Below, piece by piece: positions 35,344 to 55,309 of a stretch of 64,000 nt of DNA. The DNA comes from an uncultured Rickettsiales bacterium (GTDB taxonomy: Bacteria; Pseudomonadota; Alphaproteobacteria; Rickettsiales; CANDYO01). Made by a program: the position numbers and the translations under genes. The notes beneath the pieces are model-generated. The model was given only the letters and a program-made list of their open reading frames with translations. It was not told the DNA's origin and ran no database searches. Each line of letters starts with the position of its first letter. The stretch's first letter is position 1. The DNA is taken from contig CAZVLF010000003.1 of assembly GCA_964627795.1 (NCBI GenBank), positions 77,547 through 141,546 of the forward strand. Direction: 5' to 3'.

Positions 35344-36528
35344 ATGAAAAAAAACTTTATCTCTAATTTATTTAAAAAAAATAGCTTAAGTTTTAGCTTC
35401 TCAGATCAGGCTTTTTTCTTTAATGACAAAAGGCCAAATTGGAGCTTAAGAGGATATGAGCAATTTGCAGATCAGGCTTATGTAAAAAACGTTATTGCTC
35501 ATAGAGCAATAAATATTGTTGCTCAAGCTGCTGCAAGTGTGCCTTGGTCTTTATTTAAGCAAAATAAAACTCAAATTATATCTCACCCATTATTAAATTT
35601 ATTAAAAAGACCAAATCCATATATAGCTGGTGCTGAGTTTTTTGAAAATATTTATGCCTATAAATTAATTAGTGGAAATTCTTTTATTCTTTCGATCACT
35701 AAAGAAAATAGGGCACCGCATGAATTATTTATCTTAAGGCCTGATAGAGTGAGTGTGATTCCTGATGAGTCTGGTAAAGTTATTGGTTATATCTATAAAG
35801 TTGGAGAATATGAAAAATTTTACCCTTATAAGAATGGTAAATCGCATATTCTTCATATTAAAAATTTCCATCCGCTAGATGATTTCCGTGGGCTTTCTTC
35901 AGTTGAAGCTGCTGCATTTAGCATTGATCAGCATAATCAAGCATCGGCTTGGAATAAGTCTTTGCTTGAAAATGCTGCTCGTCCAAGTGGTGCGTTAATT
36001 GTTAAAAATAATGGGCCATTTGAAGGAAATTTAACTAATGATCAATATGAAAGATTAAAAGAACAAATGGAAGATGTTTTTAGTGGAAGTAAAAATTCAG
36101 GAAGACCGATGTTAATTGAAGGTGGGCTTGAATGGAAGGAAATGAGCCTTTCTCCTAAAGATATGGATTTTATTGAATCTAAAAATAGTTCAGCTCGGGA
36201 TATTGCTCTTGCTCTTGGGGTTCCACCACAGTTGCTTGGTATACCTGGAGATAATACTTATAGTAATATGCAAGAAGCAAGATTAGCTTTATGGGAAGAA
36301 ACGGTTATACCATTGCTTGATCATTTAACTGATAGTTTAAATAACTGGTTGGTTACGATGTTTGGTGAAGATTTGAATTTAAAATATGATATCAACGATA
36401 TAAGCGGATTATCAACCAGACGAGAAAAAATATGGTCAAGAATTGAAAATGCCTCTTTTCTTACTATTAATGAAAAGAGGCAAATGGTGGGGCTTTCTCC
36501 TATTAATGGAGGAGATAAATTAAACTAA
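35344..36528 (+). CDS. Phage portal protein, HK97 family (RcGTA g3-like)
   Basis: 394 aa with AYVKNVIAHRAINIVAQAAASVPW...HPLLNLLKRPNP...GNSFIL and SLSPKDMDFIESKN...IALALGVPPQLLG. Confidence 0.9.
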   Translation: MKKNFISNLFKKNSLSFSFSDQAFFFNDKRPNWSLRGYEQFADQAYVKNVIAHRAINIVAQAAASVPWSLFKQNKTQIISHPLLNLLKRPNPYIAGAEFFENIYAYKLISGNSFILSITKENRAPHELFILRPDRVSVIPDESGKVIGYIYKVGEYEKFYPYKNGKSHILHIKNFHPLDDFRGLSSVEAAAFSIDQHNQASAWNKSLLENAARPSGALIVKNNGPFEGNLTNDQYERLKEQMEDVFSGSKNSGRPMLIEGGLEWKEMSLSPKDMDFIESKNSSARDIALALGVPPQLLGIPGDNTYSNMQEARLALWEETVIPLLDHLTDSLNNWLVTMFGEDLNLKYDINDISGLSTRREKIWSRIENASFLTINEKRQMVGLSPINGGDKLN

Positions 36529-36550
36529 AAGGTAGATTGTGATTAGTGTT

Positions 36551-38059
36551 TTAAGCACCTCCTACTACATGATCAAGTTCATACATGCAAAATGTTGCTA
36601 ACGAACCTGCGCTTGCTGGAACTGCAGATGCAATTAGTTCAGGTATAATTAATGATGATGCGATATCAGACGAAGATATATCCGATGGTGCAGCATATAA
36701 AATATCTTGGCATGTATAAGTGTTTGCAGCAGTTATTGAAGAAGAACATGCTAAATTAATTTGCTGTGAAGTGCATACTGAATTTGCACAAGCGAAAGGT
36801 ATTGAAGGAAATACAAAATTAAACATATAAAAAGGATAATTAAATTCATAACTATGGCATGAATGATCTTCACAGAATACAGGTAAATTGTAGTGAAGCA
36901 GTTCGAAATTAGAGTCACCCAAACCTGTAATTCTTGTTTTTGGAACAAAAAAACCGCCGACAGCATCAAAACAAGGACCTTCGGGACTTGTTGATACATA
37001 AACATGAGGTTGAGTTCCATCGATAGCAAGTGAATAATCACCAAAATTCTCAAATTCAGTTAAGAACGCCCAGTTATTGCATTTTTGTCTGGCTAAATCT
37101 CTTCCTTCTAATGTATTAGAGCCTTCAGCAATGAGAGTGATTTCACTTGCAACTGCGCTTGCGCTTGGACAAGAATAAAAAGATCCAAGCGTTCCTAATT
37201 GAGCATTGCCAGAGCTGCTTGAAAGACTTTGTTGGATATTAGTTATTTGATTAGCTAAAAAGTTAATATGATCAACTAAATTAGCATTTGAGTTTCTATA
37301 TATTACTTCATTGGTTAAATCAGGAGTAAAGTTGGTGTCATGGTCATTAAAGACATTAAGTTTTAACTCAAGTTCATCCAATGTAAATGTCTCAGGCAAT
37401 CCATTAAGGTTACTTATGATTGCTAATGCAACTTGTGAAGGTCCTCCTTCAAATGAAAGGATATTATTCCTTAAGTCACTACCATCAATCATATGAGGTG
37501 AGCCTGGAATTGTTATTAAATTTTTAAGTAAATCACTTGTTAGAGCATTGCTACCACTAATATCTGAAGTATATGTAGCTAAATTTTCGTTTAAAGAGTT
37601 TAATAGATTATCTTTGATTAAATTTAATGAGATATAACTTGATATGGTTGGATTTAGATTATAAGTATCACCAATTTGATTGTCATGAATAAATGATTTT
37701 ATATTAAGTAAAAGCTTTTCAACAGCTTCATGAATAGCTTTTTTATCAGTTAATTGGTTTTGGTAGGTATAAGTTGTTTCACGCAAATCAATTAAATCTG
37801 CATATTCAGTATTATCATTAGTTATATATTCTTTTACATCAGCAATAAAGCTTAAGGCTGATTGGCTATCATCTTGATTAAGAATATATAATATGGATTC
37901 AAAAGTATTTTTAATACTATTTTTAATTTGCTCCTTAGTTTGAGGGGTATGCGCATTATATTCACGTAAATCTGGGTCAGCATGCGTGAAAAAGCGGGTT
38001 GAAACTGAAGAAAGTAGTAATGCATTAAGCGCAATAGCGATGTTTATAAATGAAAACAT
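36551..38059 (-). CDS. Secreted hypothetical protein, Cys-rich C-terminal half
   Basis: 502 aa. The Sec-type N-terminus is MFSFINIAIALNALLLSSVSTRFFTHA. The last ~200 aa contain about 14 Cys. It is antisense to, and inserted between, the portal and protease-capsid genes. Confidence 0.6.
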   Translation of the reverse strand: MFSFINIAIALNALLLSSVSTRFFTHADPDLREYNAHTPQTKEQIKNSIKNTFESILYILNQDDSQSALSFIADVKEYITNDNTEYADLIDLRETTYTYQNQLTDKKAIHEAVEKLLLNIKSFIHDNQIGDTYNLNPTISSYISLNLIKDNLLNSLNENLATYTSDISGSNALTSDLLKNLITIPGSPHMIDGSDLRNNILSFEGGPSQVALAIISNLNGLPETFTLDELELKLNVFNDHDTNFTPDLTNEVIYRNSNANLVDHINFLANQITNIQQSLSSSSGNAQLGTLGSFYSCPSASAVASEITLIAEGSNTLEGRDLARQKCNNWAFLTEFENFGDYSLAIDGTQPHVYVSTSPEGPCFDAVGGFFVPKTRITGLGDSNFELLHYNLPVFCEDHSCHSYEFNYPFYMFNFVFPSIPFACANSVCTSQQINLACSSSITAANTYTCQDILYAAPSDISSSDIASSLIIPELIASAVPASAGSLATFCMYELDHVVGGA

Positions 38060-38112
38060 AATTTTTTACTCCTATTTTAATTAAATAAATATAGACCAAA
38101 TAAATTAATAAT

Positions 38113-39756
38113 ATGTTAACAGGGAAGAGGATGGATAAAAAAAGTTACAATTTTGAAATGTTAGAGGATGATAAGGGTTTGGTTAAAGGTTATGCAAGCG
38201 TATTTAATGTTTGTGATAATCATAAAGATATTATTGTTAAAGGAGCATTTAGCAATTTAAATGTCAATCAAGTTAAACTTTTATGGCAACATAACCCGGA
38301 AGAACCAATAGGAGTTATTGAAGATATATATGAGGATGAATATGGGCTATTTTTTCAAGCTAAACTCTTAATCGAAATTCCACAAGCAAAGCAGGCATAT
38401 GAATTAATCAAAGCAAAAGCTATTTCTGGAATTAGCATAGGATTTGTTCCGGTTTCATACCACTACGAAGGTGATTTAAGAATTATTAAAGAGGTTGCTT
38501 TATGGGAAATTAGTTTAGTTACTTTTCCTGCAAATATCCATGCAAATATTTTAGAAGTTAAACAACAATCAATTAGACGAGGCAATATGAAAAATAACAC
38601 AGAACAAACCTGGGAAGAGTTTAAAGCAGTTAATGAGGAAATTTTAAAAGCAAAAGAAAATAAAGGGTTTGCTGATCCACTATTAACTCAGCAATTACAA
38701 AGAATTAATGAACAATTTGATGAATATAAATCAAGAATTGATTCTTTAGAAACGACTATCTCTAGGCCATTTATTGGTAGTTTGAATGCTTCTTCTTCAT
38801 GGATAGAACAAGAACATAAAAATGCTTTTACTAATTATCTTCGCACAGGTGTTGAGCAAGAACTCGTTAACTATGAGAAAAAGTCTCTCTCATCAATTAG
38901 TGAGCAAGATGGAGGTTTTCTTTTAACTAAGCAGACTTCATCACATTTAATTAAGGCTTTAGATGAAATATCACCTTTACGTAAATTAGCTTCTAAAGAG
39001 CAAATTTCTTCTGCCTCGCTAGATGTGATTGAAGATTATGACAATGCTCAAGCTGGTTGGAGTGGAGAAGTAAAGCAGGTTAATGATACTGAAACACCCA
39101 AAATAAATAAACGAAATATTCCTGTGTTTCAGCTTTATGCACAACCAGCGGCAACTCAAAAATTAATAGATGATTCTTCAGTTGATATTGAACAATGGTT
39201 GGCTGAAAAGTTAATCAGTAGTTTTTCTAAACTTGAGTCTCAAGCTTTTATCAATGGAGATGGGGTGACTTGTCCAAGAGGTATGTTAACTTATGCCGAT
39301 GGTAAGGAATGGGGTAAAGTTCAGCAAATAAAAAGCGGAATAGATAGTGGATTTGATGCAGATGCCATTTTCAATTTATATTTCCAGCTAAAATCACATT
39401 ATTGCCAAAACGCAAGCTTTATAATGAATAGATTTACTTTACATGCTATTAGAACTTTAAAAGATAAAAATAGTGGAAGATATTTATGGAGCCCTTCTAT
39501 AAGTGAAAAAAACCCTAATACTTTAATAGGTTTGCCAGTTTATGAAGTTGCTGATATGCCTATTCCAGATAAAAACTCTTTATCAATAGCTTTAGCAGAT
39601 TTTAAAGCAGCTTATAAAATTGTTGATCGTATGGGAGTTAGAATTTTAAGAGACCCATATACATTTAAGCCTTTTGTTAAGTTTTACACTACTAAAAGAG
39701 TTGGTGGTGATGTAACCAACTTTGAAGCAATAAAATTATTAAAGCTTGCGGCTTAG
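38113..39756 (+). CDS. Fused HK97-family prohead protease (g4-like, aa 1-~150) and HK97-family major capsid protein (g5-like, aa ~159-547)
   Basis: One uninterrupted frame. The protease part carries KGYASVFNVCDNHKDIIVKGAF...ISIGF...EISLVTFPAN. The capsid part runs from the in-frame ATG at 38587 (MKNNTEQTWEEFKAVNEE...LESQAFINGDG...IMNRFT...YTTKRVGGDV). Confidence 0.85.
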   Translation: MLTGKRMDKKSYNFEMLEDDKGLVKGYASVFNVCDNHKDIIVKGAFSNLNVNQVKLLWQHNPEEPIGVIEDIYEDEYGLFFQAKLLIEIPQAKQAYELIKAKAISGISIGFVPVSYHYEGDLRIIKEVALWEISLVTFPANIHANILEVKQQSIRRGNMKNNTEQTWEEFKAVNEEILKAKENKGFADPLLTQQLQRINEQFDEYKSRIDSLETTISRPFIGSLNASSSWIEQEHKNAFTNYLRTGVEQELVNYEKKSLSSISEQDGGFLLTKQTSSHLIKALDEISPLRKLASKEQISSASLDVIEDYDNAQAGWSGEVKQVNDTETPKINKRNIPVFQLYAQPAATQKLIDDSSVDIEQWLAEKLISSFSKLESQAFINGDGVTCPRGMLTYADGKEWGKVQQIKSGIDSGFDADAIFNLYFQLKSHYCQNASFIMNRFTLHAIRTLKDKNSGRYLWSPSISEKNPNTLIGLPVYEVADMPIPDKNSLSIALADFKAAYKIVDRMGVRILRDPYTFKPFVKFYTTKRVGGDVTNFEAIKLLKLAA

Positions 39757-39776
39757 ATATTTAGGGTTTTAAAGGC

Positions 39777-39802
39777 TTCTTGAAAAAAATATTTATCAAG
39801 AA
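39777..39802 (+). terminator. AT-rich hairpin TTCTTGA n12 TCAAGAA after the capsid gene
   Basis: Read directly, 21 nt after the stop at 39756. The stem is weak and AT-rich. Confidence 0.3.
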
Positions 39803-39817
39803 ACCAAAAGTGAGGTT

Positions 39818-40030
39818 ATGATGAATTACGATTCTGAGATTGAAAAAATAAACTTAGAAATCAGGTTGTTAAAGGAAGAAATTAATTTAATTAAAAAGGA
39901 AAAAGGAAATAACAAATCTTATTCATATGAGAAAAATTATCCTACTTTATCTGATATGAAAACTTTAAATAAGATTTACAAAATGTTTCATAATTCTTTG
40001 CCTAATGTGATGAATGATTTTGATTGGTAG
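39818..40030 (+). CDS. Small coiled-coil hypothetical protein in the head module
   Basis: A 70-aa ORF with a GTGAGG RBS, positioned between the capsid and connector genes. No motif was recognised. Confidence 0.4.
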   Translation: MMNYDSEIEKINLEIRLLKEEINLIKKEKGNNKSYSYEKNYPTLSDMKTLNKIYKMFHNSLPNVMNDFDW

Positions 40031-40042
40031 GCATGATTTAGC

Positions 40043-40567
40043 ATGAATAAAAAAATAGAATTAATTAGCCAAGAAAGTAAAGAAGTTATTAGCTTATTAA
40101 GGGCTAAGAAATTTTTACGAGTTGAACATAGTTATGATGATGATTTAATTCAAGAAATGCTCAACATTGCTGTTATAGCTGGTGAGAATTATCTTGGTAT
40201 GAACCTTATTAATCAAAATTGGAAAATGACCTTTTTTAATAATCTTTCAAGAATTGTTAAGTTTACTCAATATCCTTTACTTAAAATTAACAGCATTAAA
40301 CTTATAAAGCATAATCAAGAAGAAGTTTATCTTAACCAAGAAAGTTATTATATAAATGAGCACAAATCAGAGCTAATTCTTAACCGAGAATATTGCATAA
40401 AAAGCGCTGAAATAAACTATATTATAGGATTTAAGGATATCCCCTCACTAATTATTCATGCAATTCTTGAACATTTAGTAAAAATGTATGATTTACGAGG
40501 AGCTGATCAGTCACTTCCTTTTTCAGCAAGAACAATTTACCAAAAATATAGAAGAGTAAGGTTATAG
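40043..40567 (+). CDS. Phage gp6-like head-tail connector protein (RcGTA g6-like)
   Basis: 174 aa. ISLLRAKKFLRVEHSYDDDLIQEMLNIAVIAGENYLG matches the head-tail connector N-terminal signature. Confidence 0.7.
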   Translation: MNKKIELISQESKEVISLLRAKKFLRVEHSYDDDLIQEMLNIAVIAGENYLGMNLINQNWKMTFFNNLSRIVKFTQYPLLKINSIKLIKHNQEEVYLNQESYYINEHKSELILNREYCIKSAEINYIIGFKDIPSLIIHAILEHLVKMYDLRGADQSLPFSARTIYQKYRRVRL

Positions 40568-40902
40568 TGAGTATAAAAAACTTAGCTTCCTCATTGCGCC
40601 ATGTTATTATTATTCAAAACAAATTAGCTGCAATAAATGATGGTATAGATATAGAAGTTTGGGAAAGTTTTGCTGTAGTTAGAGCAGCAATTAAGCCTCT
40701 TTACGATAATAAAATTGGAGAAATTTACTCTGCTATGCAGTTAATTGAGAATGCTTATTCTAAATTTACCATTAGATTTATTCCAAATTTAAGCATCAAT
40801 ATGCGAATTATTTATAATAATAGAATCTTTATTATCAAAAGAATTACAAATAATAATGAATTAAATATCTCGCTTAGTATAATTGCTCAGGAGACAATAT
40901 GA
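40567..40902 (+). CDS. Phage head-tail adaptor / head closure protein (RcGTA g7-like)
   Basis: 111 aa with a GTG start abutting the g6 stop. The pattern is LRHVIIIQ...VWESFAVVRAAIKP...FTIRF...RIIYNNRIFIIKRI. Confidence 0.7.
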   Translation: MSIKNLASSLRHVIIIQNKLAAINDGIDIEVWESFAVVRAAIKPLYDNKIGEIYSAMQLIENAYSKFTIRFIPNLSINMRIIYNNRIFIIKRITNNNELNISLSIIAQETI

Positions 40903-41267
40903 TATGGGATTTCCAAGATTATTTAAGAGAACAAATATGTTCAAATAAGTCTATTGCGAATGAATTAGGAATTTATTTTTCAGTTCCCTCAAACAGTAAG
41001 TTTCCATATATTTATATTGGAGATTTTGTTTGCAAGGATGCTTCAGTTAAACTAAGAAGAATAACTGAAATTAACTTTAATATTTTTATATATTATCGTG
41101 ATAAAAGGGGAAAATATTATCTTCGATTTGCTAAAGAAGTAGAGAATACTTTGCTTTTATCTGAAATTATAAAGATCAAGTATAAGGGTCTAAAAATTTC
41201 TTCTCATTCAGATGGTGTAACAGAGCATATATGTTTATTATATAAGGCATTGATTGAAGAGGTATAA
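40899..41267 (+). CDS. RcGTA g8-like (DUF3168-type) neck/tail-completion protein
   Basis: 122 aa with a 4-nt overlap with g7. The assignment rests mainly on position and size. Confidence 0.4.
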   Translation: MIWDFQDYLREQICSNKSIANELGIYFSVPSNSKFPYIYIGDFVCKDASVKLRRITEINFNIFIYYRDKRGKYYLRFAKEVENTLLLSEIIKIKYKGLKISSHSDGVTEHICLLYKALIEEV

Positions 41268-41273
41268 ATAATA

Positions 41274-41663
41274 ATGATTTCTGATGGATCTTTGTTATTA
41301 GTGGAAGTTCTTATAGATGAAAAATTCTATCCAATTGGAGGAATGAAATATACAAAAATTTCTCTAAATAACAAAGTAGTTGAACAAAATAATATCAATA
41401 GCCAATGGAGAGAGCTTTTTGCAGGAGAAAAATCAGCTGAAATAAGTTTAAAAGGTATAGTTACGAGATCTAAGGCGGAAGAGTTCATTCATTATTTAAG
41501 CTTAAGTGGTGAAAAATCTAAATATAAAATTATATTTGATGGAGGAGTAAATATTGAAGGTGATTTTTTCATAAATTTTTACCAAAGATCTGGAACAGTA
41601 AATGAAGAAGAGGAATATTTTATGACTCTTATTAGTAGTGGAAGCTTAAATATTATAAAATAA
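41274..41663 (+). CDS. Phage major tail protein, TP901-1 family (RcGTA g9-like)
   Basis: 129 aa with GSLLLVEV...IGGMKYTKISLNN...WRELFAGEKSAEISLKGIV...GDFFINFYQRSG...EEEEYFMTLISSG. Confidence 0.75.
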   Translation: MISDGSLLLVEVLIDEKFYPIGGMKYTKISLNNKVVEQNNINSQWRELFAGEKSAEISLKGIVTRSKAEEFIHYLSLSGEKSKYKIIFDGGVNIEGDFFINFYQRSGTVNEEEEYFMTLISSGSLNIIK

Positions 41664-41727: not shown

Positions 41728-42603
41728 ATGAAAAAAAATTCTAACCTTAAGCCTGAGGTAAATGAAGGGGTTAAAGAGGACATAGCAAAATTAGCAAAGC
41801 AGATTGAAAATGGTCAATATGGTAATGATGAATTTACTAAAAATATGACTGATGAAGTTGCTAATTCTATCATTGAGTTAGCAAAATTAATTGAAGATGG
41901 TGGAATTGGTGACAAAGAATTGGCTAATTATCTTGCATTAATATTAAGAAGATTATCACGAGAAAAAGAAAAAAAAATTAAAAAAGATAAAGTTAAGAAA
42001 AAAACAGCTCTTGAAGTGCTTATGGAACAGCTTTTAAGAACTTTCGCTCAGAATAACGCTAATAAAAAAAATAATATTAATAAAAACAAAAATCATGAAC
42101 CAGGATATATGGTAAAACAAATGATAAATGATTTAGATAGAGCCATTTCTAAGCTGGTTAGTGCTTCACGCTTTGATAGTGATGTTAATACTATTAACTT
42201 AATTGAAGATACGATTGCTGTTAATCAAAAGGTTGCTGCTTTAACTGGAAATAAATGTAAATCAGTTAGAGGGCTCTCTACGAAATTAGTAAGGGCAAAA
42301 ATTGCCACTTCTACTCAAGCATTAGATAGCACTATTTCAAATCTATCAACCTTAAAAAGCGGTAGAGCCTTTGAATCATGGTCTCAAGCTAATGAAATTG
42401 ACTATAATCATGGGGGAGGGCTAGATTTAAGAACTGAAGCAGCAAAAGATTATCAAGAAGAAATGATAAAAAAGCTAAGATTTAGCTCTGAAAACGCTAA
42501 AATACCTTCTGGCCCAGATGATATCCCAATCACTGAAACAGCAAAAAAACAAAAAGAAAAAGAAAACCAAGAATGGATTAACACATTTAATTATAAAAAA
42601 TAA
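41728..42603 (+). CDS. Lys-rich helical hypothetical protein at the position where tail chaperone/tape measure genes would be expected
   Basis: 291 aa with a GGGAG RBS and a low-complexity KKIKKDKVKKK...NKKNNINKNKN segment. I recognise no g10/g11 motif. Confidence 0.5.
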   Translation: MKKNSNLKPEVNEGVKEDIAKLAKQIENGQYGNDEFTKNMTDEVANSIIELAKLIEDGGIGDKELANYLALILRRLSREKEKKIKKDKVKKKTALEVLMEQLLRTFAQNNANKKNNINKNKNHEPGYMVKQMINDLDRAISKLVSASRFDSDVNTINLIEDTIAVNQKVAALTGNKCKSVRGLSTKLVRAKIATSTQALDSTISNLSTLKSGRAFESWSQANEIDYNHGGGLDLRTEAAKDYQEEMIKKLRFSSENAKIPSGPDDIPITETAKKQKEKENQEWINTFNYKK

Positions 42604-42663: not shown

Positions 42664-43377
42664 ATGAAAATTTTTAGTCTTGATAACGTTAAAAATGGAA
42701 ACTTTAAATATTTAATTTCCATTGGCAAAAGACAGCCTATGCATATAGGACATAAACGTTCTTTAGAAAGGATTTTATCATTAGATGCTTTAAAGCTTAT
42801 TTATGTGATTGGTTCATCAAATAAAGGCGGTGACGCTCTTTTTAATCCTTTTATTAATCCTCTTAATTTAAATCAGCAAATAGAGCAGTTTAAATTTGTT
42901 TTTCCTGATGCTAACCCTATCTTTATATCAATTGACGATATTACAGATATGAGCAAGTGGGGATCAAGTATTGTATCAAAATTAGAAGAGATTAATATTA
43001 AACCTTCTGAATGTGTAATTCATTTTATTGGTAAAGAAGAAGATAGGATAACAGCGCCTTGTAGCTTTATGATTGAATCGGGAAAAAAAATAACCCTTGA
43101 AAAAGGAAGATGGTTAATTGAAGCTTTAGAATATTATGAATTTGATATATGGTTTGATAATGAAGCAGAAGTTAATTTGTCTATCTCTGCAAGAAACTTA
43201 AGAAATATAGACCTTATAAATATATCTAAAGAGGATAAAAATCTCTTTTCAGCTTATGACTACATTGTGAAAATAGCTAAAGAAGCAAGAGCTAGTGATC
43301 CAGAAAGAGATAAAATACTAGATATACCTTTAACTTTAGGTGATTTAAGTAAGCAAAGAATAAGATTAGAAACCTAA
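42664..43377 (+). CDS. Nucleotidyltransferase-superfamily protein, NadM/NadR-type nicotinamide-nucleotide adenylyltransferase-like
   Basis: 237 aa. GKRQPMHIGH resembles GRFQPFHxGH, and LSISARNLRN resembles the ISSTxxR motif. Confidence 0.55.
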   Translation: MKIFSLDNVKNGNFKYLISIGKRQPMHIGHKRSLERILSLDALKLIYVIGSSNKGGDALFNPFINPLNLNQQIEQFKFVFPDANPIFISIDDITDMSKWGSSIVSKLEEINIKPSECVIHFIGKEEDRITAPCSFMIESGKKITLEKGRWLIEALEYYEFDIWFDNEAEVNLSISARNLRNIDLINISKEDKNLFSAYDYIVKIAKEARASDPERDKILDIPLTLGDLSKQRIRLET

Positions 43378-44511: not shown

Positions 44512-44512
44512 T

Positions 44513-45241: not shown

Positions 45242-45243
45242 GG

Positions 45244-45810: not shown

Positions 45811-45883
45811 TTCCAACCTTTAAAAATAAATTCTAATTTTGTCAGAAGATATATAGATATTGTGAATTAGTCAATTATATCTT

Positions 45884-47137: not shown

Positions 47138-47432
47138 TTTTATTTATCGTTTTTGATTGTTTGGTTTGCGCAGCAATAGCTTTTTCATTTTGACCAGTGG
47201 CAGCATAATAAAGTTTTTTTCCATTATTGATTATGGATTGATATTCTTCATCACTTATTGAAGATATTACTTGTTCTAAACTATTTTTTTCTTCCTTTTT
47301 AAAAGGGGTATTATCAGAAGATTTATACTTAACGGGCTCAGAAATAGGAGATACAATTGGTTGTTGAGATTGTTCTTTACTGCTGCTTTTTCCTAAAAGA
47401 ATATTTTTTAATTGAGAAAATATGTTAGCCAT
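47130..47432 (-). CDS. Hypothetical small protein
   Basis: 100 aa, first gene of a two-gene minus-strand unit divergent from g15. Confidence 0.45.
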   Translation of the reverse strand: MANIFSQLKNILLGKSSSKEQSQQPIVSPISEPVKYKSSDNTPFKKEEKNSLEQVISSISDEEYQSIINNGKKLYYAATGQNEKAIAAQTKQSKTINKNA

Positions 47433-47487: not shown

Positions 47488-50400
47488 ATGTCATCTACTT
47501 TTTTTGGAGGATTTGGCAAATTTTTAGGTCAATCAATTGCAGGGCCAATTGGAGGGATGATTGGTAGTGAACTTGATAAAGAATTATTTTCACCAAAAGT
47601 AGCTCCTAAACAAGGACGAAGAATTAATGAATTTACTCTGCAAACGGCAGTTTATGGAAGAGAAATTCCTATAATTTATGGAAAGGTAAAGCTAGGAGGA
47701 AATATAATATGGTCCTCTAAAATAAAAGAACAAAAGGAAGACTTTTATCAAAAAAGAAGCAAGTTTGGAGGAAGGTCGCTGATTGCAAGCCAGTTTAATT
47801 ATTCAATATCACTGGCAATCGCTTTAGCTGAAGGAGAAGTTGATGAGATTTTAAGAGTGTGGGCGGATGATCACTTAATTGATTTAAAGATGGTTAATTA
47901 TAGATTTTATAAAGGATGTGAAGACCAAACACCAGACCCGCTAATTGAAGCTTATCAAGGTTTTGGAATGACACCTGCTTTTAGAGGGTTATGCTACGTA
48001 GTTATAGAAGATTTACCTTTAAAAGAATATGGAAACCATATACCTAATTTTACTTTTGAGGTTGTTCGAAATATTAAAACTAAAGCTAATAATGGTGATG
48101 AACCAATTGAAGATAGAATTAAATCTATGGTAATAATTCCCGGTTCAGGTGAATTTGTTTATGATACTATTATTCAATCAAAAGTCCCTAACAAATATAA
48201 TCCAAATTTTGGTTACTTTAATTACCATAAAAGTAAAATAAATCAAAATAATAGAGAAAATAAAGCAGATAGTTTGGTCTCTTTAGATCAACTACAAAAA
48301 ACTTGCCCAAATATAGAATGGGTTGCACCTGTAGTTGGATGGTTTACAACGAGCCTTGATCTAGGTAGATGTAAGATTATGCCAGGAGTTGAATATAAAG
48401 ATGGTGATACAATCCCTGATCCTTGGAAAGTAAATTTTTATACACGTGATAATGCTTATTTAATTTCAAGATCAAAACATGGAGGGGCAAATTATGGAGG
48501 AACTGTAAATGATCTTTCTATAATAAGATATCTTGAGGAACTAAAAGCCCGAGGCTATAAAATTTTATTTTACCCAATGTTATTTGTTGACCATGTAAAT
48601 AAGCCGTGGAGAGGAAGAATTACAGGTAGAGCAAACCAAGTTGAAAGTTTCTTTAAAAAGAATCAAGGATATAATAAATTTATCTTACATTATGCCAATT
48701 TAGTGAAAGATAAGGTTGATGCATTTTTAATAGGTTCTGAGCTAATTGGCATAACTAGAATAAAAGATGAAAATGATAGATTTCCTGGTGTTGATTGTTT
48801 AATTGATCTTGCAAAGCAAGTAAAAGAAATTATGGGAGATAAAGTTAAAGTAAGTTATGCTGCAGATTGGAGCGAATATCATCATAGTGAAAATGGTTGG
48901 TATAACCTTGATCCTTTATGGGCTTGTAATTATATAGATTTTATAGGCATTGATGCATATTTTCCTTTAACCAACTCCACTCTTTCAATAAAGAATGAAG
49001 AAGATATTTCAAAAGGATGGAATAGTGGAGAAGGTTGGGATTATTATTATGAAGATCAAAGTAAAACAATTAAAAAGCCCCTAAAACCAGAATATGCCTG
49101 GAAAAATATTGAATTTTGGTGGAGTAATAAGCATGTTAATCCAGATGGAAAGCAAACTTCTTGGGTACCAAAAAGCAAAAAAATCTGGTTTACTGAGATA
49201 GGATTTCCCTCGGTAGATTTAGCTTCTAATCAGCCAAATGTTTTTTTTGCTCCAGATTCAATGGAAAGCAAGTTTCCTATTCATTCTAAAGGGAGAGTTG
49301 ATTTCGTTTCTCAGCGCCAAGCACTTTCAGCAAGTGAAAAATTTTGGCGAAACAGCAATTTTCTAGAGCGAATGTTTGTTTGGACATGGGATGCAAGGCC
49401 TTTTCCATTCTGGCCCGATATGTTAAAGATTTGGAGTGATGGTGGATGCTGGTCTAGAGGCCATTGGGTGAATGGAAAATTAGGAAAAACATCATTAAAT
49501 TCTATAATAATAGATGTGCTTAATCGAGTTGGTATAAATGATCAATATATAGAAGTTGAGCAATTAACTGATATAGTAGATGGTTTTATAGTAACATCAA
49601 AAGATACAGCAAAGGAAATTATAGATATTCTAAAATCTGCATATTGTTTTACAACTTATGAACGCGATGGAAAAATTAAATTTATTAAAAAGAAAAATTT
49701 TGAAACTCATTATATTGAATATGATAGTTTAATTATAAGCTATAACGAGAATAATTATAAAACTAAAATTAAAAAAAGTTCTATCAACGAAATACCTAAA
49801 TCGGTTGAAATTTATTATTATGACTATCTTTATGATTATAATCCTACTTTAGAGATAAGGCATAATTATAATGTTGAAGGAATACAAAAGTTATGCATTC
49901 AGATTCCAATAAATTTAGATAAAGCTAGTGCTAGCTTAATAGCAGAAATAATTTTAAAAGAATTATACTATAAACAATTAACTTATGAATTTTATCTTTC
50001 AACTGAGTATGCAAAAATTGTTCCTAATGATATAATTTTTTTGAATGATCACAAAAAGACTTTATCGTTAAGAGTAGAAAAATTAGAATTTGGTGCTGGA
50101 AAAATATGCAAAATTAAAGCTTCATCGGTTAATCCAGAGATTTATGAACAATATTCCTCATTGAATTTAAATAACTATAATGTACTTCTTAATAAAACAA
50201 ATTTAGATCCTGGAGCCACTGAATTAATTGCTTTAAAAATTCCTCCATTACCTTATGAACATATGAATAACATTATATATTTAGGGGTGATAGGGGAAGA
50301 TAAAGATTGGAGAGGAGCTTGTGTAATTTGTCCTGACAATAGTTTATTGTTTTTTCCTTATGAGATAACCTATGGAATAATTGAAATAGATGAGGACGGG

Positions 50401-50721
50401 GAATTAATAGTTCAGTTATTCAATGGTGAATTATCTAGCAAAAATGAAGAAGAATTAAAAAGATATGCAAATCTTGCAGCTATAGGCGACGAAGTTGTGC
50501 AATTTGAAATTGCAGAATATATAGCAAAAGATAAATATCGTTTATCTAATGTAAAAAGAGAATTATTTGGATCTAAAAGGCAAGATAAAAAAAGATTTAT
50601 TTTAATAGAGCATAAACTACATAAATTTCCACTTCCACTCAGCTACCCAGATGAAAAAATTGAATTTATTGTAACTAGTGTTGGGCATAGTCAAGAAAAA
50701 TCAATAAAATATAAATTTTAA
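47488..50721 (+). CDS. RcGTA g15-like host-specificity / baseplate (megatron-type) tail protein
   Basis: 1077 aa with a Gly-rich N-terminus (FFGGFGKFLGQSIAGPIGGMIGS). It carries IIPGSGEFVYDT, GGANYGGTVNDLSIIRYLEELKARGYKILFYPMLFVD and a GH-like central domain. Confidence 0.8.
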   Translation: MSSTFFGGFGKFLGQSIAGPIGGMIGSELDKELFSPKVAPKQGRRINEFTLQTAVYGREIPIIYGKVKLGGNIIWSSKIKEQKEDFYQKRSKFGGRSLIASQFNYSISLAIALAEGEVDEILRVWADDHLIDLKMVNYRFYKGCEDQTPDPLIEAYQGFGMTPAFRGLCYVVIEDLPLKEYGNHIPNFTFEVVRNIKTKANNGDEPIEDRIKSMVIIPGSGEFVYDTIIQSKVPNKYNPNFGYFNYHKSKINQNNRENKADSLVSLDQLQKTCPNIEWVAPVVGWFTTSLDLGRCKIMPGVEYKDGDTIPDPWKVNFYTRDNAYLISRSKHGGANYGGTVNDLSIIRYLEELKARGYKILFYPMLFVDHVNKPWRGRITGRANQVESFFKKNQGYNKFILHYANLVKDKVDAFLIGSELIGITRIKDENDRFPGVDCLIDLAKQVKEIMGDKVKVSYAADWSEYHHSENGWYNLDPLWACNYIDFIGIDAYFPLTNSTLSIKNEEDISKGWNSGEGWDYYYEDQSKTIKKPLKPEYAWKNIEFWWSNKHVNPDGKQTSWVPKSKKIWFTEIGFPSVDLASNQPNVFFAPDSMESKFPIHSKGRVDFVSQRQALSASEKFWRNSNFLERMFVWTWDARPFPFWPDMLKIWSDGGCWSRGHWVNGKLGKTSLNSIIIDVLNRVGINDQYIEVEQLTDIVDGFIVTSKDTAKEIIDILKSAYCFTTYERDGKIKFIKKKNFETHYIEYDSLIISYNENNYKTKIKKSSINEIPKSVEIYYYDYLYDYNPTLEIRHNYNVEGIQKLCIQIPINLDKASASLIAEIILKELYYKQLTYEFYLSTEYAKIVPNDIIFLNDHKKTLSLRVEKLEFGAGKICKIKASSVNPEIYEQYSSLNLNNYNVLLNKTNLDPGATELIALKIPPLPYEHMNNIIYLGVIGEDKDWRGACVICPDNSLLFFPYEITYGIIEIDEDGELIVQLFNGELSSKNEEELKRYANLAAIGDEVVQFEIAEYIAKDKYRLSNVKRELFGSKRQDKKRFILIEHKLHKFPLPLSYPDEKIEFIVTSVGHSQEKSIKYKF

Positions 50722-50781: not shown

Positions 50782-51543
50782 ATGAGATTTCTAACAATAA
50801 TTTTTATTTTTTTTATTGCTTTTATAACTTTTCTTTATGAATTATCTCACTATGTAAATTCAGAAAAGTTAGAATATTTAGATAAAGAAATAGGCTCTTT
50901 TGAGGTTGTAGTTGCTAGATACAATGAAAATATTGATTGGATTTTAAAAGAATTTCCGCATGATAAAGTTACAATATACAACAAAGGAAAACAAAATCTT
51001 AAAACTCATTCCAATTATAAAATTATAAAACTTCCTAACCTTGGTAGAGAAGCGCATACTTATCTTTATCACATAATTAATAATTATGATAATTTAAGCG
51101 ACAGAATATTATTTCTTCAAGGGAATCCATATACTAATCATGAGATGCATTTTATTTTTCTGCCTTTAAAAAAATATAAAATACTTAAAGAAACCAATTG
51201 TAAAGCCATAATTGCAAAAGATTGTTTCTTAACTACTGAAAATAAAGAAAAAAAATTACTCTTAAACTTAAGCAATACAAAATGGAAAGATGTAATTTAT
51301 AAAAGTTATGATTTTATTGATTTTAAAAGGAGGTTTGTTGATTTAAATGGTTCTTCTAAAGAATATTTTTATACCAATTACCAAGCAAATTTTTCTGTGG
51401 ATAAATGCAAAATTTTATCTCACAGTAAAGAATATTATGAAACTCTTTTTAACACTCTAGATAATGCAGCACCAATTGAAGGACATTATTTAGAGCGCCT
51501 GTGGGATGTGATTTTTTCAAATAATTCTCAATCTTGCAAATAA
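50782..51543 (+). CDS. DUF3431-like protein with N-terminal membrane anchor (eukaryote-type family)
   Basis: 253 aa with the TM anchor FLTIIFIFFIAFITFLY. VVVARYNENIDWI and LPNLGREAHTYLYHIINNYDNLSDRILFLQG match my recollection of the DUF3431 core (NKGREA..YL..II.NYD.L). Confidence 0.55.
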   Translation: MRFLTIIFIFFIAFITFLYELSHYVNSEKLEYLDKEIGSFEVVVARYNENIDWILKEFPHDKVTIYNKGKQNLKTHSNYKIIKLPNLGREAHTYLYHIINNYDNLSDRILFLQGNPYTNHEMHFIFLPLKKYKILKETNCKAIIAKDCFLTTENKEKKLLLNLSNTKWKDVIYKSYDFIDFKRRFVDLNGSSKEYFYTNYQANFSVDKCKILSHSKEYYETLFNTLDNAAPIEGHYLERLWDVIFSNNSQSCK

Positions 51544-51642
51544 CTTCTATAGTAAAATAAATTTAATCAGCTGCTTAAATATTGATGCAAACTTTATTTT
51601 GTTTCTCAAGTTTTACTCAAAAAAAAACTATCAAATATACAT

Positions 51643-52239
51643 ATGAATAATTTTTACGAAATACAATTTCCTTCTGATATTGCTTATGGTGCCACAGGTG
51701 GACCTGAGTTTTTAACTGATATATACACAGCTTCAAGTGGAATTGAAACAAGAAATATTAATTGGAATAATTCTAGATGTAGATATAATCTTGCACCAGC
51801 AATCAAAACAAAAGATCAGCTAGATATAATAGTTACTTTTTTTAGAATATGCAAAGGAAAGGCAATTGGTTTTAGGTTTAAGGATTGGATGGATTATTCC
51901 ATATCAAAACAAAAAATTGATATGGGTGATGGAAACAAAACAGAATTTCAAGTTATTAAAACTTATATAGTAGAAAGTATCAAGATAGAAAGAAAAATAG
52001 CTAAGCCAGTCAAGGACAGACTTAAAATTTATGTAAATAATGTGCAAGTAAAACCACATATAAATTACACCACCGGAAAAATTATCTTTGAAACTCCTCC
52101 TGCAAAGGGAAGTGAAATTTTAGTTGAAGGAGAGTTTGATATTCCAGTCAGGTTTGATATAGATAAACTAACCACTTCAATTGAAAATCATTTAATTTAC
52201 TCACATTATGAGATTCCTCTTATTGAGTTGAAACTTTAA
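51643..52239 (+). CDS. RcGTA g12-like protein (DUF2460 / TIGR02217 family)
   Basis: 198 aa with FYEIQFPSDIAYGATGGPEFLTDIYTASSGIETRNINWNNSRCRYNL. Confidence 0.8.
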   Translation: MNNFYEIQFPSDIAYGATGGPEFLTDIYTASSGIETRNINWNNSRCRYNLAPAIKTKDQLDIIVTFFRICKGKAIGFRFKDWMDYSISKQKIDMGDGNKTEFQVIKTYIVESIKIERKIAKPVKDRLKIYVNNVQVKPHINYTTGKIIFETPPAKGSEILVEGEFDIPVRFDIDKLTTSIENHLIYSHYEIPLIELKL

Positions 52240-52306
52240 AAAAACTTGCACTTGAAGTTAATTTGCATTATTAGTGATATTAATTAATTAGACTTAAGTA
52301 ACTAAA

Positions 52307-53197
52307 ATGCCCCAGCTGAAGAATAATCAATTAGCTATATCAATGATGATGTTGCATGCTCTGGCTGTAGCTGGATTATTTGTGTTAATGAAGTTATTAA
52401 CTAAAGAAATAAGTTCTAATTTTGCAGTATTCGTTTATAAATTCATTTCTCTTTTTTTTCTTTTGCCATGGGTATTAAGCAAAGGCGGTTTAAGCAATTT
52501 ATACACTAAAAAGATCTCTATTTATATTATTGGATCAATTTTAGGAACTTCAGCAACATTATGCTTAATGTATGGACTGAAATTTATTCCTGTGGCAAAT
52601 GTAACTATACTAGGATATTTAGAAAAAGTATTATTAATACTAATAGGGATTTTTTATTTTAAAGAAAAATTATCGTGGACTATTATTTTATCGATAATAA
52701 TATGCATTGCTGGTGCAATTATTATTGTTATTCCTAAATTTAACCATCAAATAGAGTTTAATCATTATTACACATATATTCTTTTATCAATAATATTATG
52801 GGTTTTATATTGCCTTACAGTGAAATATTTAGGTGACACAGATAGTTTTAAGTGTCAAACATTTTATACAGTAGCTTTATCTACAATATTATCTTTTTTT
52901 GTTAGTTATTTTCTAGATAAACAAGATTATTTTGTTAAACAAGCATTTACTAGCAATCAATTAATACTATTTATTTTTAGTGCATTTCTTTATATTATTA
53001 TTTCTACATCTTTGTTTAAGTCGTTTAGAACAGGAAATTTATCTATAATAACTCCATTTGGATATACTAAAGTGGTGTTTGCCGCAATATTAGGTTATAT
53101 TTTCTTTGGTGAAATTCCCTCACTAATCCAAATTATAGGCTATAGTATGATTATTATATCTTCTTGGTATATTGCTTATCAAAACTCTTCAAAATAA
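52307..53197 (+). CDS. EamA/DMT-superfamily transporter
   Basis: 296 aa with 10 TM helices in a two-EamA-repeat architecture. It is inserted between g12 and g13. Confidence 0.7.
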   Translation: MPQLKNNQLAISMMMLHALAVAGLFVLMKLLTKEISSNFAVFVYKFISLFFLLPWVLSKGGLSNLYTKKISIYIIGSILGTSATLCLMYGLKFIPVANVTILGYLEKVLLILIGIFYFKEKLSWTIILSIIICIAGAIIIVIPKFNHQIEFNHYYTYILLSIILWVLYCLTVKYLGDTDSFKCQTFYTVALSTILSFFVSYFLDKQDYFVKQAFTSNQLILFIFSAFLYIIISTSLFKSFRTGNLSIITPFGYTKVVFAAILGYIFFGEIPSLIQIIGYSMIIISSWYIAYQNSSK

Positions 53198-53219
53198 ATT
53201 ATTTTCTAAATAAAATTTT

Positions 53220-54002
53220 ATGAATATAACTAATTACGTTACATGCATTAACATTATGCTAATGGATGGAAATCAAATAAACTTAACTACTTCTGATGAA
53301 GAAGTTAGGTATAACAAACAAATATTTTATCCAATAGGAGGTCTTAGTATAAGTAAAATATCAACTTCTGAGCAATTAGGAGAAGATAACTTTTATTTTA
53401 ACTGTGCTATTGATGATAATTTTTTTAAATATAAGGATTTAATTGAAGGAAGATTCAATCAAGCTATGCTTGAAGTATGGTTGGTTAATAATAATGAAGA
53501 AAAAATTTTGTTAAAAACGGGCTTTATAGGAGTAATTAGTATAAAAGCTGAGAATTTTTTCACGGCTGAAATCGAATCATTAAGTAGTAAAACTAAAAAT
53601 ACACTAGGAAAATGTTACCTTAGAACTTGTAGGGCAAATTTTGGTGATATGAATTGTAAAATAGATGCTTCTAAATATAGTTTTCCAGGGCAAATAAGCT
53701 TTGTAAATATAGGTAATTCATTTAGTGATAAAGATCGCTTAGAACCAGATGATTATTTCACTTATGGAAAAATAAAATTTGTTAGTGGAAAATTTCAAGA
53801 TAAAGAGTTTCAGGTTTCAAGTTACTTAAACTCTAGCATTTATATTGATTGTCATTATAAGCTAGATTTTAAAGTAGGAGATGAATATATAATCACTGCG
53901 GGATGTGATAAGGAATTACAAACATGTATTTCGAAATTCGCAAATGCTATAAATTTTCGAGGTGAGTCTTTTATTCCCTCTAAAACTCAATTAGTTCAAT
54001 GA
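53220..54002 (+). CDS. RcGTA g13-like protein (DUF2163, BR0599-type distal tail protein)
   Basis: 260 aa with CRANFGDMNCKIDASKY and a C-terminal ITAGCDKELQTCISKFANAINFRGE. Confidence 0.75.
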   Translation: MNITNYVTCINIMLMDGNQINLTTSDEEVRYNKQIFYPIGGLSISKISTSEQLGEDNFYFNCAIDDNFFKYKDLIEGRFNQAMLEVWLVNNNEEKILLKTGFIGVISIKAENFFTAEIESLSSKTKNTLGKCYLRTCRANFGDMNCKIDASKYSFPGQISFVNIGNSFSDKDRLEPDDYFTYGKIKFVSGKFQDKEFQVSSYLNSSIYIDCHYKLDFKVGDEYIITAGCDKELQTCISKFANAINFRGESFIPSKTQLVQ

Positions 54003-54412
54003 CAAATAATAATATAGTTGAGCAAGCAAGATCATGGATTGGAGTTAAATTTAAACACCAAGGGAGACTCAAGAGTGGATGTGATTGCTTAGGTTTAATA
54101 ATGAATTTAGAAATAATATGTAAAAATGGCAAAAAATTAAAATATTATGATGAAACTAATTACCCAAAAATCCAATTAAGTAATCATTTAATGGAGAAGC
54201 TAGATTTGCTTCTGCACCAAGTTGATAATAATAATATCAAACCAGGAAATATAGTTCTTCTTCAAGTAAATGATCTTACACAGCATTTAGCTGTTATTAG
54301 CCAAATATCCCCACTTATATCAATAATACATTCTTATGCTCAAGTAAGGTCTGTAGTTGAACAAACGCTTCCAACATACTGGAAGATAGCAAGAACTTAC
54401 AAATCTAATTAA
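53999..54412 (+). CDS. RcGTA g14-like NlpC/P60 cell-wall peptidase
   Basis: 137 aa. ARSWIGVKFKHQGRLKSGCDCLGLI contains the catalytic Cys, and HLAVIS and IIHS are also present. It overlaps g13 by 4 nt. Confidence 0.75.
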   Translation: MTNNNIVEQARSWIGVKFKHQGRLKSGCDCLGLIMNLEIICKNGKKLKYYDETNYPKIQLSNHLMEKLDLLLHQVDNNNIKPGNIVLLQVNDLTQHLAVISQISPLISIIHSYAQVRSVVEQTLPTYWKIARTYKSN

Positions 54413-54440
54413 TCAATAAATAATATTTAGGAGGTTTTAA

Positions 54441-54884
54441 ATGATAACTCTTGTTGCTTCATTGGTGGGTTTTATCAGTTCATTAATTCCGGAGATAATG
54501 AAATATTTTTTGGATAGAAATGATAAAAAACATGAGATAAAAATATTAGAACAACAAATGAGAATGAAAAAAGTAGGGATTTCTTATTTGGATGAAGTTA
54601 TGATTAATAATGACTATAAAGAGACTCAGGCGCTTTATAAAACCTATAAAACAGGTATTTGTTGGGTTGATGCTTTAAATGGGACTGTTAGACCTGTATT
54701 GGCTTATTCTTTTTTTGCAATCTATACTTTTGTTAAGTTTTTACAATATAAAATTATATCTACAACAATAAGTATTAACGAAATAATAAATGTGCTTTGG
54801 AGTGTGGATGATCAAGCAATTTTTGCCGGAATAATAAGTTTTTATTTTGGTCAAAGAGCTGTTAGTAAGCTAAGAGGTAAATGA
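54441..54884 (+). CDS. Three-TM holin-like protein (GTA_holin_3TM-like)
   Basis: 147 aa with a GGAGG RBS. There is an N-terminal TM helix, a charged linker, then WVDALNGTVRPVLAYSFFAIY and a third TM helix. It overlaps the lysozyme start by 4 nt. Confidence 0.5.
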   Translation: MITLVASLVGFISSLIPEIMKYFLDRNDKKHEIKILEQQMRMKKVGISYLDEVMINNDYKETQALYKTYKTGICWVDALNGTVRPVLAYSFFAIYTFVKFLQYKIISTTISINEIINVLWSVDDQAIFAGIISFYFGQRAVSKLRGK

Positions 54885-55309
54885 TGGATATATCTTTAGA
54901 AGGCATAAGTTTAATTAAAAGTTTAGAAGGATTTAAAGCTGAACCCTATATATGTTCAGGCGGTTATAAAACAATAGGTTATGGGCATGTTATTTTAAGT
55001 AATGAATATGATGTAATAACTGAAAGCGAAGCAGACGTTATTTTATTTAAAGATATTGCTAAAGCTAAAGAATCTGTTTGCAGGAATATAGAAATAAAAT
55101 TAAAGCAATGCCAATTTGATGCTTTAGTATCTTTTACATTTAATGTTGGAGGGGCGGCCTTACAACGATCTACGCTAAGACAAAAAATAAATAGAAGTGA
55201 ACATGATTTAATTCCCAAAGAGCTACAAAAATGGGTATATGCTGGAGGAAGAATAATTCCTGGTTTAATAAAAAGAAGAATTATTGAAGCAGAAGTTTAT
55301 TCTAATTAA
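54881..55309 (+). CDS. Phage lysozyme (GH24 endolysin)
   Basis: 142 aa with LEGISLIKSLEGFKAEPYICSGGYKTIGYGH and ALVSFTFNVGGAAL. Confidence 0.85.
   Translation: MMDISLEGISLIKSLEGFKAEPYICSGGYKTIGYGHVILSNEYDVITESEADVILFKDIAKAKESVCRNIEIKLKQCQFDALVSFTFNVGGAALQRSTLRQKINRSEHDLIPKELQKWVYAGGRIIPGLIKRRIIEAEVYSN

Follow-up and report, generated by a model that had tools for sequence, protein, structure and literature searches.

A close described counterpart of the locus reported here is the gene transfer agent (GTA) of Rhodobacter capsulatus, RcGTA (g1–g15, rcc01682–rcc01698; 6TBA, 6TEH). Shakya et al. 2017 (PMC5721377) defined a large RcGTA-like cluster as one with at least nine head-tail homologs, merging regions fewer than 15 open reading frames (ORFs) apart, and found only small clusters of up to five genes in the Rickettsiales genomes then available. 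Dispersed RcGTA homologs are attributed to Rickettsia, Wolbachia and other Rickettsiales in the account of Lang & Beatty 2007 given by PMC9254644 and PMC10732058, and Orientia carries six conserved GTA genes in several loci, with transcription and purifying selection also reported (PMC10732058; Giengkam et al. 2023). In Rickettsiales and Holosporaceae endosymbionts of protists the GTA genes lie in several loci, are transcribed and evolve with a ratio of non-synonymous to synonymous substitutions (dN/dS) below 1 (PMC9254644), and their repurposing for host interaction has already been proposed (George et al. 2022, PMC9254644; Lang & Beatty 2007; Giengkam et al. 2023). The 64,000-nucleotide stretch analysed here, referred to as the window, comes from an uncultured Rickettsiales bacterium (contig CAZVLF010000003.1 of assembly GCA_964627795.1) and contains such genes. 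Positions 28131–49756 match a Logan contig of run SRR10083296 with 100% identity, the same proteins are encoded on an NCBI contig of 200,339 bp, and the genome is absent from the GTDB species representatives. A first-pass annotation of this DNA held that GTA genes are generally lost in the most reduced intracellular lineages, a premise at odds with the findings of George et al. 2022, of Lang & Beatty 2007 and of Giengkam et al. 2023. Since dispersal, selection and repurposing had all been reported, the central inference of that annotation repeats published work, and dispersed, conserved Rickettsiales GTA genes and the idea of their repurposing are not new.

The genes form two runs of plus-strand ORFs at 35.3–55.3 kb of the window, a head module at 35.3–41.7 kb and a tail module at 47.5–55.3 kb, and all GTA genes listed below are uninterrupted ORFs on that strand. 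The region probably represents the head-tail genes of an RcGTA-type GTA, inherited vertically in the chromosome of an uncultured, AT-rich Rickettsiales-like endosymbiont, and the GTA itself likely goes back to a domesticated HK97-like siphovirus. Eleven RcGTA head-tail homologs (g3, g4, g5, g6, g7, g8, g9, g12, g13, g14 and g15) are present within about 20 kb, and with seven ORFs separating g9 from g15 the locus counts as a large cluster under the rule of Shakya et al. 2017. Rickettsiales-affiliated genomes can therefore carry clusters of a class once thought confined to other alphaproteobacterial orders. When each module was concatenated and searched against all PDB sequences, the top match was an RcGTA chain for six proteins, namely portal, capsid, tube, megatron, distal tail and hub. 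The g4, g6 and g7 products were assigned by Pfam/TIGRFAM, and those of g8 and g14 gave significant matches below the curated cutoffs. In the single-sequence search against the PDB, g6, g7, g8 and g14 returned no RcGTA match and are assigned from Pfam, TIGRFAM and PHROG families together with position. The inventory of intact genes in the first-pass annotation, including the g4-g5 fusion, the holin and the lysozyme, is thereby borne out. For the collection of relatives, aligned fused proteins served as the query of a genome scan, which gave 80 loci, nearly all from metagenome-assembled genomes (MAGs) of uncultured Rickettsiales or Alphaproteobacteria. L-numbers denote fetched loci.

The head module begins with the portal gene g3 (35344–36528, +), whose 394-aa product matches Phage_portal (E-value 2.5e-85), TIGR01537 (4.8e-70) and, in the PDB search, the RcGTA portal Rcc01684 (2.9e-92), and is 72–75% identical to its counterparts in clade relatives. 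It is followed, beyond an antisense insert, by the g4-g5 fusion (38113–39756, +) and by a small coiled-coil-like ORF of 70 aa between capsid and adaptor (39818–40030, +), which has no Pfam, NCBIfam or PHROG family match and aligns weakly with ORFs of 75–103 aa at the same position in L005, L007, L018 and L001. The head-tail adaptor g6 (40043–40567, +) matches TIGR02215 (4e-16) and Phage_connect_1 (1.4e-4), with 40–49% identity in relatives, and the head closure or stopper protein g7 (40567–40902, +) matches Phage_HCP (1.5e-12) and TIGR01563 (3.9e-5). The assignment of the tail terminator g8 (40899–41267, +) is weak, with Tail_completion_gp17 at 0.009, below the cutoff, and the PHROG 176 tail terminator at 1e-4; its position is conserved, and the orthologs in L001 and L004 match the same Pfam family. 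The module's last RcGTA homolog is the major tail tube g9 (41274–41663, +), identified by Phage_tail_2 (1.9e-16) and by the RcGTA tube Rcc01691 (3.2e-9, PDB). A different organization was seen in other Rickettsiales/Alphaproteobacteria MAGs, at L012 (11835–12957), L014 (2245–3384) and L069 (11819–12964), in which g12 directly follows g6 with no g7–g9 detected between them; this suggests the existence of GTA variants without stopper, terminator and tube genes at that position.

The 547-aa fusion protein combines an S78 prohead protease (Peptidase_S78, 2.3e-31, residues 17–154) with an HK97-fold major capsid domain (Phage_capsid, 6e-75, residues 267–544), and the capsid part matches the RcGTA capsid Rcc01687 at 6.5e-72 in the PDB search. 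With the portal, these two domains make the HK97-type head assembly set complete. About 45 full-length fused protease-capsid homologs were found in the protein database, and the protease residues H60 and S108 are invariant across 23 fused sequences. Of the loci compared, only the window, its near-identical strain L003 and L001/L009, L005/L006/L089, L007, L008 and L018 carry the fusion, which is split by a 1-bp indel in the strain L002; protease and capsid are separate in the other 77 fetched loci. The phage prohead protease/major capsid fusions of family NF045541 likewise place an S78-type protease N-terminal to an HK97-fold capsid in one polypeptide, but the window protein gives only a weak and partial match to that family (2.1e-6, 26.6 bits against a cutoff of 525), and for this reason the fusion appears from the sequences to have arisen independently within the GTA lineage. 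The scan for relatives returned a single match outside Proteobacteria-labelled genomes, at L076 (10001–11113; Limnoglobus roseus PX52, Planctomycetota), whose major capsid protein shares about 50% identity with the capsid portion of the fusion.

In the tail module g15 precedes g12, as the first-pass annotation had it. The g15 megatron baseplate protein (47488–50721, +; 1077 aa) scores 886 bits against the NCBIfam GTA_megatron equivalog (cutoff 800), contains GTA_TIM (1.6e-67), Phage-tail_3 and Rcc01698_C domains, and matches the RcGTA megatron at 1.1e-118 in the PDB search. The distal tail protein g12 (51643–52239, +) belongs to the TIGR02217 'Rcc01695 family' (196 bits, cutoff 136.65; RcGTA Rcc01695 at 2.8e-35). 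The baseplate hub g13 (53220–54002, +) scores 164.5 bits against TIGR02218 (cutoff 80.5) and matches the RcGTA hub at 6.7e-17 in the PDB search with the concatenated module and at 6e-18 in the alignment that shows all four Fe-S-binding cysteines of the RcGTA hub (PMC7296036) aligned and kept; a homolog search with g13 returned, besides the source's own protein, one distant protein. The g14 NlpC/P60 cell-wall peptidase (53999–54412, +) is 46–49% identical in relatives and is recognized by TIGR02219 (2e-11, below cutoff), NLPC_P60 (5e-4) and PHROG 329 (2e-6). Directly after g14 sits a holin/GH24 lysozyme pair, in agreement with the first-pass annotation. The holin-like protein with three transmembrane segments (54441–54884, +) matches PHROG 6637 (1.1e-25) and PF11351 (4e-4, below cutoff) and is 62–70% identical across the clade. 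PF11351 (GTA_holin_3TM), matched over the full length of the family, is the only Pfam match for all four clade holins, at best 5.8e-5 and again below cutoff, so that the protein is a member or a near neighbour of the RcGTA holin family. The GH24 lysozyme or endolysin (54881–55309, +) matches Phage_lysozyme (3.1e-36) and the BaGTA BgtA-type enzyme (7.9e-35), its E16-x8-C25-x5-T31 motif can be read in the sequence, and in relatives it is 57–60% identical and always immediately follows the holin.

The window and RcGTA have the 11 homologs in common, and an integrase and a replication module are absent from both. They differ in that, in the window, the terminase genes g1/g2 are unlinked, g4 and g5 are fused, g15 lies before g12, and the cluster is interrupted by housekeeping and lineage-specific genes. 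The megatron is about 230 aa shorter (1077 aa in the window versus 1304 aa in RcGTA), and holin and endolysin genes adjoin g14, RcGTA having its own at the separate locus rcc00555/556 (PMC5721377). Contiguous clusters in other uncultured Rickettsiales/Alphaproteobacteria MAGs (e.g. L043, L012, L061) are chromosomal, lack an integrase and encode orthologs 40–57% identical. In about 28 loci the gene for TerL, the large terminase subunit, immediately precedes that of the portal; protease and capsid are encoded separately in these clusters, the tail genes follow the canonical order g12-g13-g14-g15, and no holin-lysozyme pair is adjacent. The published Rickettsiales and Holosporaceae sets resemble the window in being spread over several loci with unrelated genes between them, in the stronger conservation of head genes and in purifying selection; in those sets the terminase is often a singleton elsewhere, and chaperone and tape measure usually go undetected. 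The window clade differs from them in its fairly complete gene set, the g4-g5 fusion, the g15-first order and the linked holin-endolysin pair, and no mention of the latter three features was found in the main text of George et al. 2022. Details that may be undescribed are the fusion of g4 and g5 throughout the clade, the linkage of a strongly conserved lysis cassette and the clade-specific ORF at the tape-measure position; like these, the g15-first order of the tail module was not found in the papers on those sets. The locus is a fairly complete addition to the known Rickettsiales GTA gene sets, with a stable clade-specific architecture, and is not categorically new.

The layout of the window is shared by four to five uncultured Rickettsiales genomes (L005/L089, L018, L001/L088 and L008/L090) at 56–75% protein identity and with saturated synonymous sites. 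On the head side these genomes have variable genes between portal and fusion, then g6–g9, then a member of the orf291 family (named for the 291-aa ORF that follows g9 in the window), an NMNAT-like gene, or both; next come brnQ, an IMPase-like gene and efp, all three on the minus strand, ahead of the tail run g15-[insert]-g12-[insert]-g13-g14-holin-lysozyme, flanked downstream by a ubiH-like gene (−) and cvpA. Only the content of the inserts varies between clade genomes, and among the fetched loci a holin-lysozyme pair beside GTA genes is found only in this clade. The division into two modules on either side of a housekeeping block is thus ancestral to the clade, old and stable. The extensive rearrangement claimed by the first-pass annotation suggests a recent scrambling, which is contradicted by the conservation of the layout across the clade. 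One relative shows a further departure: in L008 (11782–18215; MAG CAZJZY01) two ORFs of 548 and 984 aa without assigned function take the place of g6–g9 after the fused capsid gene, and the tail module of CAZJZY01 is on a separate contig (L090), which shows that the locus has been broken up still more in part of the clade. Outside the fused clade, Rickettsiales bacterium Ac37b is the named genome that lies nearest. One clade member, OZ245841.1, is a complete 1.55-Mb chromosome, an ordinary Rickettsiales-size genome that is not extremely reduced. In L005 a full chemotaxis operon (2129–8014; CheA, CheW, CheB, CheR and response regulators) precedes the fused capsid gene by about 2 kb, and not all clade members are therefore strongly reduced.

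These comparisons bear directly on the question of a recently acquired conventional prophage or prophage fragment. Phage-type structural and lysis genes on one strand and PHROG matches for several ORFs would fit such an origin. Against it, no integrase, repressor or replication genes were found among the window ORFs scanned, which upholds the corresponding statement of the first-pass annotation, and no terminase is present in the window. The G+C content is uniformly low along the window (0.26–0.35), with no compositional deviation, housekeeping genes lie between the modules and on their flanks, and the same chromosomal context recurs in all clade relatives examined at 56–75% protein identity. 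The only tRNA is 2 kb downstream and adjoins no end of a module. A recent prophage is accordingly very improbable and can be regarded as effectively refuted.

Selection on the GTA genes was assessed from the non-synonymous and synonymous differences per site (pN and pS) between the window and its clade relatives. Synonymous sites are saturated (pS 0.6–0.78), and therefore only pN versus pS and the comparison with flanking genes are meaningful. The GTA genes have pN values of 0.16–0.45 and their ORFs are nonetheless intact. The lowest values are those of the portal (0.16) and the g4-g5 fusion (0.22–0.25), the most conserved structural genes, and of the holin (0.19–0.22), which together with the endolysin (0.25–0.29) is among the best conserved proteins. 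Values for g12 (0.27–0.29) and g15 (0.28–0.30) are followed by those for g14 (0.33–0.36), g13 (0.39–0.41) and g6–g9 (0.33–0.45). The flanking genes span a similar range, from efp (0.12–0.15) and brnQ (0.24–0.26) to ubiH (0.30), the IMPase gene (0.31–0.34) and cvpA (0.30–0.37). Since the pN of the GTA genes falls within the range of these flanking housekeeping genes, the comparison supports the conclusion, drawn in less specific form by the first-pass annotation, that they have been retained by purifying selection. Constraint on the head, baseplate and lysis genes is about as strong as on their neighbours, and on connector and tube genes it is weaker. A comparable pattern of head-over-tail conservation was found by George et al. 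2022 (PMC9254644). At the strain level, the head genes of the window and L002 (GCA_006365035.1, contig VFQO010003233.1), a strain 99.46% identical, differ at 14 synonymous and 12 non-synonymous positions, numbers too small for a reliable estimate; a rough ratio of about 0.25–0.3 is obtained if about three times as many non-synonymous sites are assumed.

Several genes of the RcGTA set are missing from the window, as the first-pass annotation had stated. No terminase was detected there by tblastn with three Rickettsiales TerL queries (E>0.8), and a TerL profile hidden Markov model built from 20 sequences and run without filters found no window ORF at E≤10; a ~465-aa ORF upstream of the portal in about 28 related MAG loci is a Terminase_6C protein. 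Terminase genes are commonly unlinked singletons in Rickettsiales (PMC9254644), and for this reason their absence from 64 kb says little. No g3.5, g10, g10.1 or g11 is recognizable in the window, the latter three having been sought by Pfam, PHROG, PDB and TAC-type comparisons. In L040 and L059 a TAC_11-like ORF follows g9, as in the canonical cluster. TAC_11/TAC_6-type ORFs lie between the capsid and adaptor genes in Ac37b (L004, 11310–13121) and in L005 (11623–11943), and none of the window ORFs matches the TAC_11/TAC_6-type ORFs of relatives. The 70-aa ORF was considered as a relocated tail chaperone and rejected, as it aligns with the other small post-capsid ORF and not with the TAC_11-like one. 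The g10/g10.1/g11 slot after g9 is occupied instead by the clade-specific orf291 (41728–42603, +), which also follows g9 in L005, L007 and L018 and whose family has seven representatives among 1.84 billion proteins. From its position, orf291 is a candidate tape-measure substitute.

A number of observations weigh against a functioning GTA. Beyond the gap at the chaperone and tape-measure genes in the window, neither large nor small terminase was found in any fetched locus of the close clade. The orf291 protein has no Pfam, PHROG or PDB similarity (profile against PDB, none at E≤10), and its AlphaFold2 model is all-helical and of low confidence, with a predicted local distance difference test score of 49. 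No enrichment of CtrA boxes or other regulatory signal was seen in the window: TTAA-N7-TTAA occurs 14 times against 20 expected, scans for promoters and terminators gave counts equal to chance in this AT-rich DNA, and no GafA-like protein was identified. The faster divergence of g6–g9 and g13 (pN 0.33–0.45) could mean relaxed constraint. In L002 a 1-bp insertion in an A7 run (L002 3700–3725, window 39505) splits the fusion into 462 and 84 aa, and this may be an assembly or sequencing error or a real frameshift. Finally, George et al. 2022 (PMC9254644) imaged over 850 endosymbiont cells belonging to other species and saw no particles. The gene set could on such grounds be a relic in slow decay, one that no longer yields a complete particle and whose genes persist through slow deletion or through co-option of single proteins, for example the lysozyme or the peptidase; the genes missing locally, the weak family matches of g8 and g14, the divergence of g6–g9 and g13, the L002 frameshift and the lack of g6–g9 downstream of the capsid gene in L008 would all fit. 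We nevertheless consider a relic rather unlikely. About 13 GTA ORFs are each intact in at least four genomes with saturated synonymous sites, pN stays far under pS, at values like those of the adjacent housekeeping genes, and the L002 indel falls within a homopolymer on a contig with low coverage. Unconstrained DNA is rapidly lost from reduced endosymbiont genomes, which also counts against slow decay.

The genes inserted into and between the modules had been read by the first-pass annotation as cargo, and their presence was verified. The antisense ORF between portal and fusion (36551–38059, −; 502 aa) has a signal-peptide-like N-terminus and about ten cysteines in its C-terminal part, gave no Pfam, PHROG or PDB match, and is found only in the near-identical strains L002 and L003; relatives carry other genes there. 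Within the tail module, a DUF3431 protein with an N-terminal membrane anchor is encoded between g15 and g12 (50782–51543, +; Pfam 5.8e-19). DUF3431 is mainly a eukaryotic (fungal) family. The window protein gave nothing significant against the PDB, and a 48% identical ortholog in the same position is shared with L089 only, L088 and L090 carrying ferritin genes and ORFs without assigned function instead. An EamA/DMT transporter gene lies between g12 and g13 (52307–53197, +; Pfam EamA 6.2e-28) and has no counterpart at this position in L088, L089 or L090, and the acidic ORF upstream of the portal has none in relatives. The separation of the modules by NMNAT-like, brnQ, suhB-like and efp genes and two orphans was confirmed with Pfam and NCBIfam. 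The first of these encodes a 237-aa NMNAT-like nucleotidyltransferase unrelated to GTA functions (42664–43377, +), with weak NCBIfam matches to NMN adenylyltransferase (6.5e-6) and orthologs of 52–56% identity in the same place in L018 and L001/L088. It is followed by the housekeeping block brnQ–IMPase-like–efp (43420–45816, −; Branch_AA_trans 2.5e-61, Inositol_P 4.9e-11 and three EF-P domains), which lies in the same orientation between g9 and g15 in L005/L089, L018 and L088. The two orphan ORFs of 417 and 100 aa (45884–47432, −) are lineage-specific, without family matches and without homologs in the loci of relatives.

The tail-module inserts are on the same strand as the GTA genes with spacers of 23–100 bp, an arrangement compatible with co-transcription, and variable same-strand genes inside the modules, some of them effector-like elsewhere in the clade (ankyrin proteins in L001), would suit a particle repurposed for something other than DNA transfer between bacteria, for example to carry protein or DNA to the eukaryotic host, or for a compartment function. 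A terminase and a tape measure would be dispensable in such a particle, and the failure to recognize terminase, chaperone and tape measure in the window, with the terminase also lacking from the close-clade loci, would be explained. The megatron, some 230 aa shorter than that of RcGTA, and the proposal already made for endosymbiont GTAs (PMC9254644) point in the same direction. The inserts differ between genomes, however, and one is antisense; because their content varies, the supposed cargo gives the impression of genes that come and go at a small number of sites where insertion is tolerated, and the 502-aa ORF, DUF3431, EamA and orphan genes are most simply regarded as passengers. The parts that would cross a bacterial envelope are conserved, namely the g14 peptidase, the Gly/Phe-rich N-terminal segment of the megatron and the Fe-S site of the hub, holin and endolysin are among the best conserved proteins, and unlinked singleton terminases are common in Rickettsiales (PMC9254644). 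Repurposing is therefore unlikely in our estimate. The host-directed device suggested by the first-pass annotation fits poorly with the conserved peptidoglycan peptidase, holin and lysozyme, and the tailocin-like device suggested alongside it fits poorly with the conserved portal, protease and capsid genes. A tailocin is by definition a tail without head genes, and here portal and protease-capsid are intact. Conservation of both the peptidoglycan-directed parts and the head genes favours a GTA over a tailocin or a device aimed at eukaryotes; with the terminase, the chaperone and the tape measure all missing, our confidence in a GTA is moderate.

By analogy with RcGTA (PMC7296036, PMC5721377), a subpopulation of cells would express both modules and build a small tailed particle. 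The fused protease-capsid would assemble on the portal and cleave itself, and a terminase encoded elsewhere in the genome would package a few kb of host DNA. The tail would then be assembled, its length possibly set by an unlinked tape measure or by orf291, and holin and endolysin would lyse the producer cell to release the particles. The baseplate, through the N-terminal segment of the megatron and the g14 peptidase, would open the envelope of a recipient bacterium, and the packaged DNA would be delivered through this peptidoglycan-containing envelope to bacteria of the same population. Conservation of the lysis pair equals that of the housekeeping genes nearby, an argument that lysis still serves to release particles. 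A tentative and improbable extension would make the locus a derived, largely self-contained GTA characterized by the fusion, by a clade-specific replacement of chaperone and tape measure and by a dedicated holin-endolysin cassette in the tail operon. If so, programmed lysis of a fraction of the endosymbionts inside the host would itself be selected, and the benefit could be DNA exchange or some other release, with DUF3431 and EamA co-expressed. Why small, clonal, genome-reducing endosymbionts keep lysis-dependent gene exchange is a recognized puzzle, and the locus leaves that picture unchanged. It adds a relatively complete example, with 11 head-tail homologs and linked lysis genes in an architecture fixed across the clade. 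If a clade member can be cultured in its host, the g4-g5 fusion and orf291 would be targets for the study of minimal GTA assembly.

The remaining ORFs of the window are housekeeping or effector-like (PntAB, GlpX, LigA, MipZ, DapF, Dxs and ankyrin/OTU proteins). A regulator of the LuxR/GerE type (9813–10655, −; 280 aa) has no established link to the GTA genes. The division ATPase MipZ (23468–24292, +) supports an alphaproteobacterial origin of the DNA. Downstream of the tail module, an ORF of 115 aa (57185–57532, +) that is conserved after cvpA in L089 overlaps the sole tRNA gene of the window, a tRNA-Asn (57441–57515, −). Two large proteins are effector-like, one of 1138 aa (6365–9781, −) with a methyltransferase domain, ankyrin repeats and an OTU cysteine protease, and the other an ankyrin-repeat protein of 609 aa (11258–13087, +), and both are of a kind typical for host-interacting intracellular bacteria.

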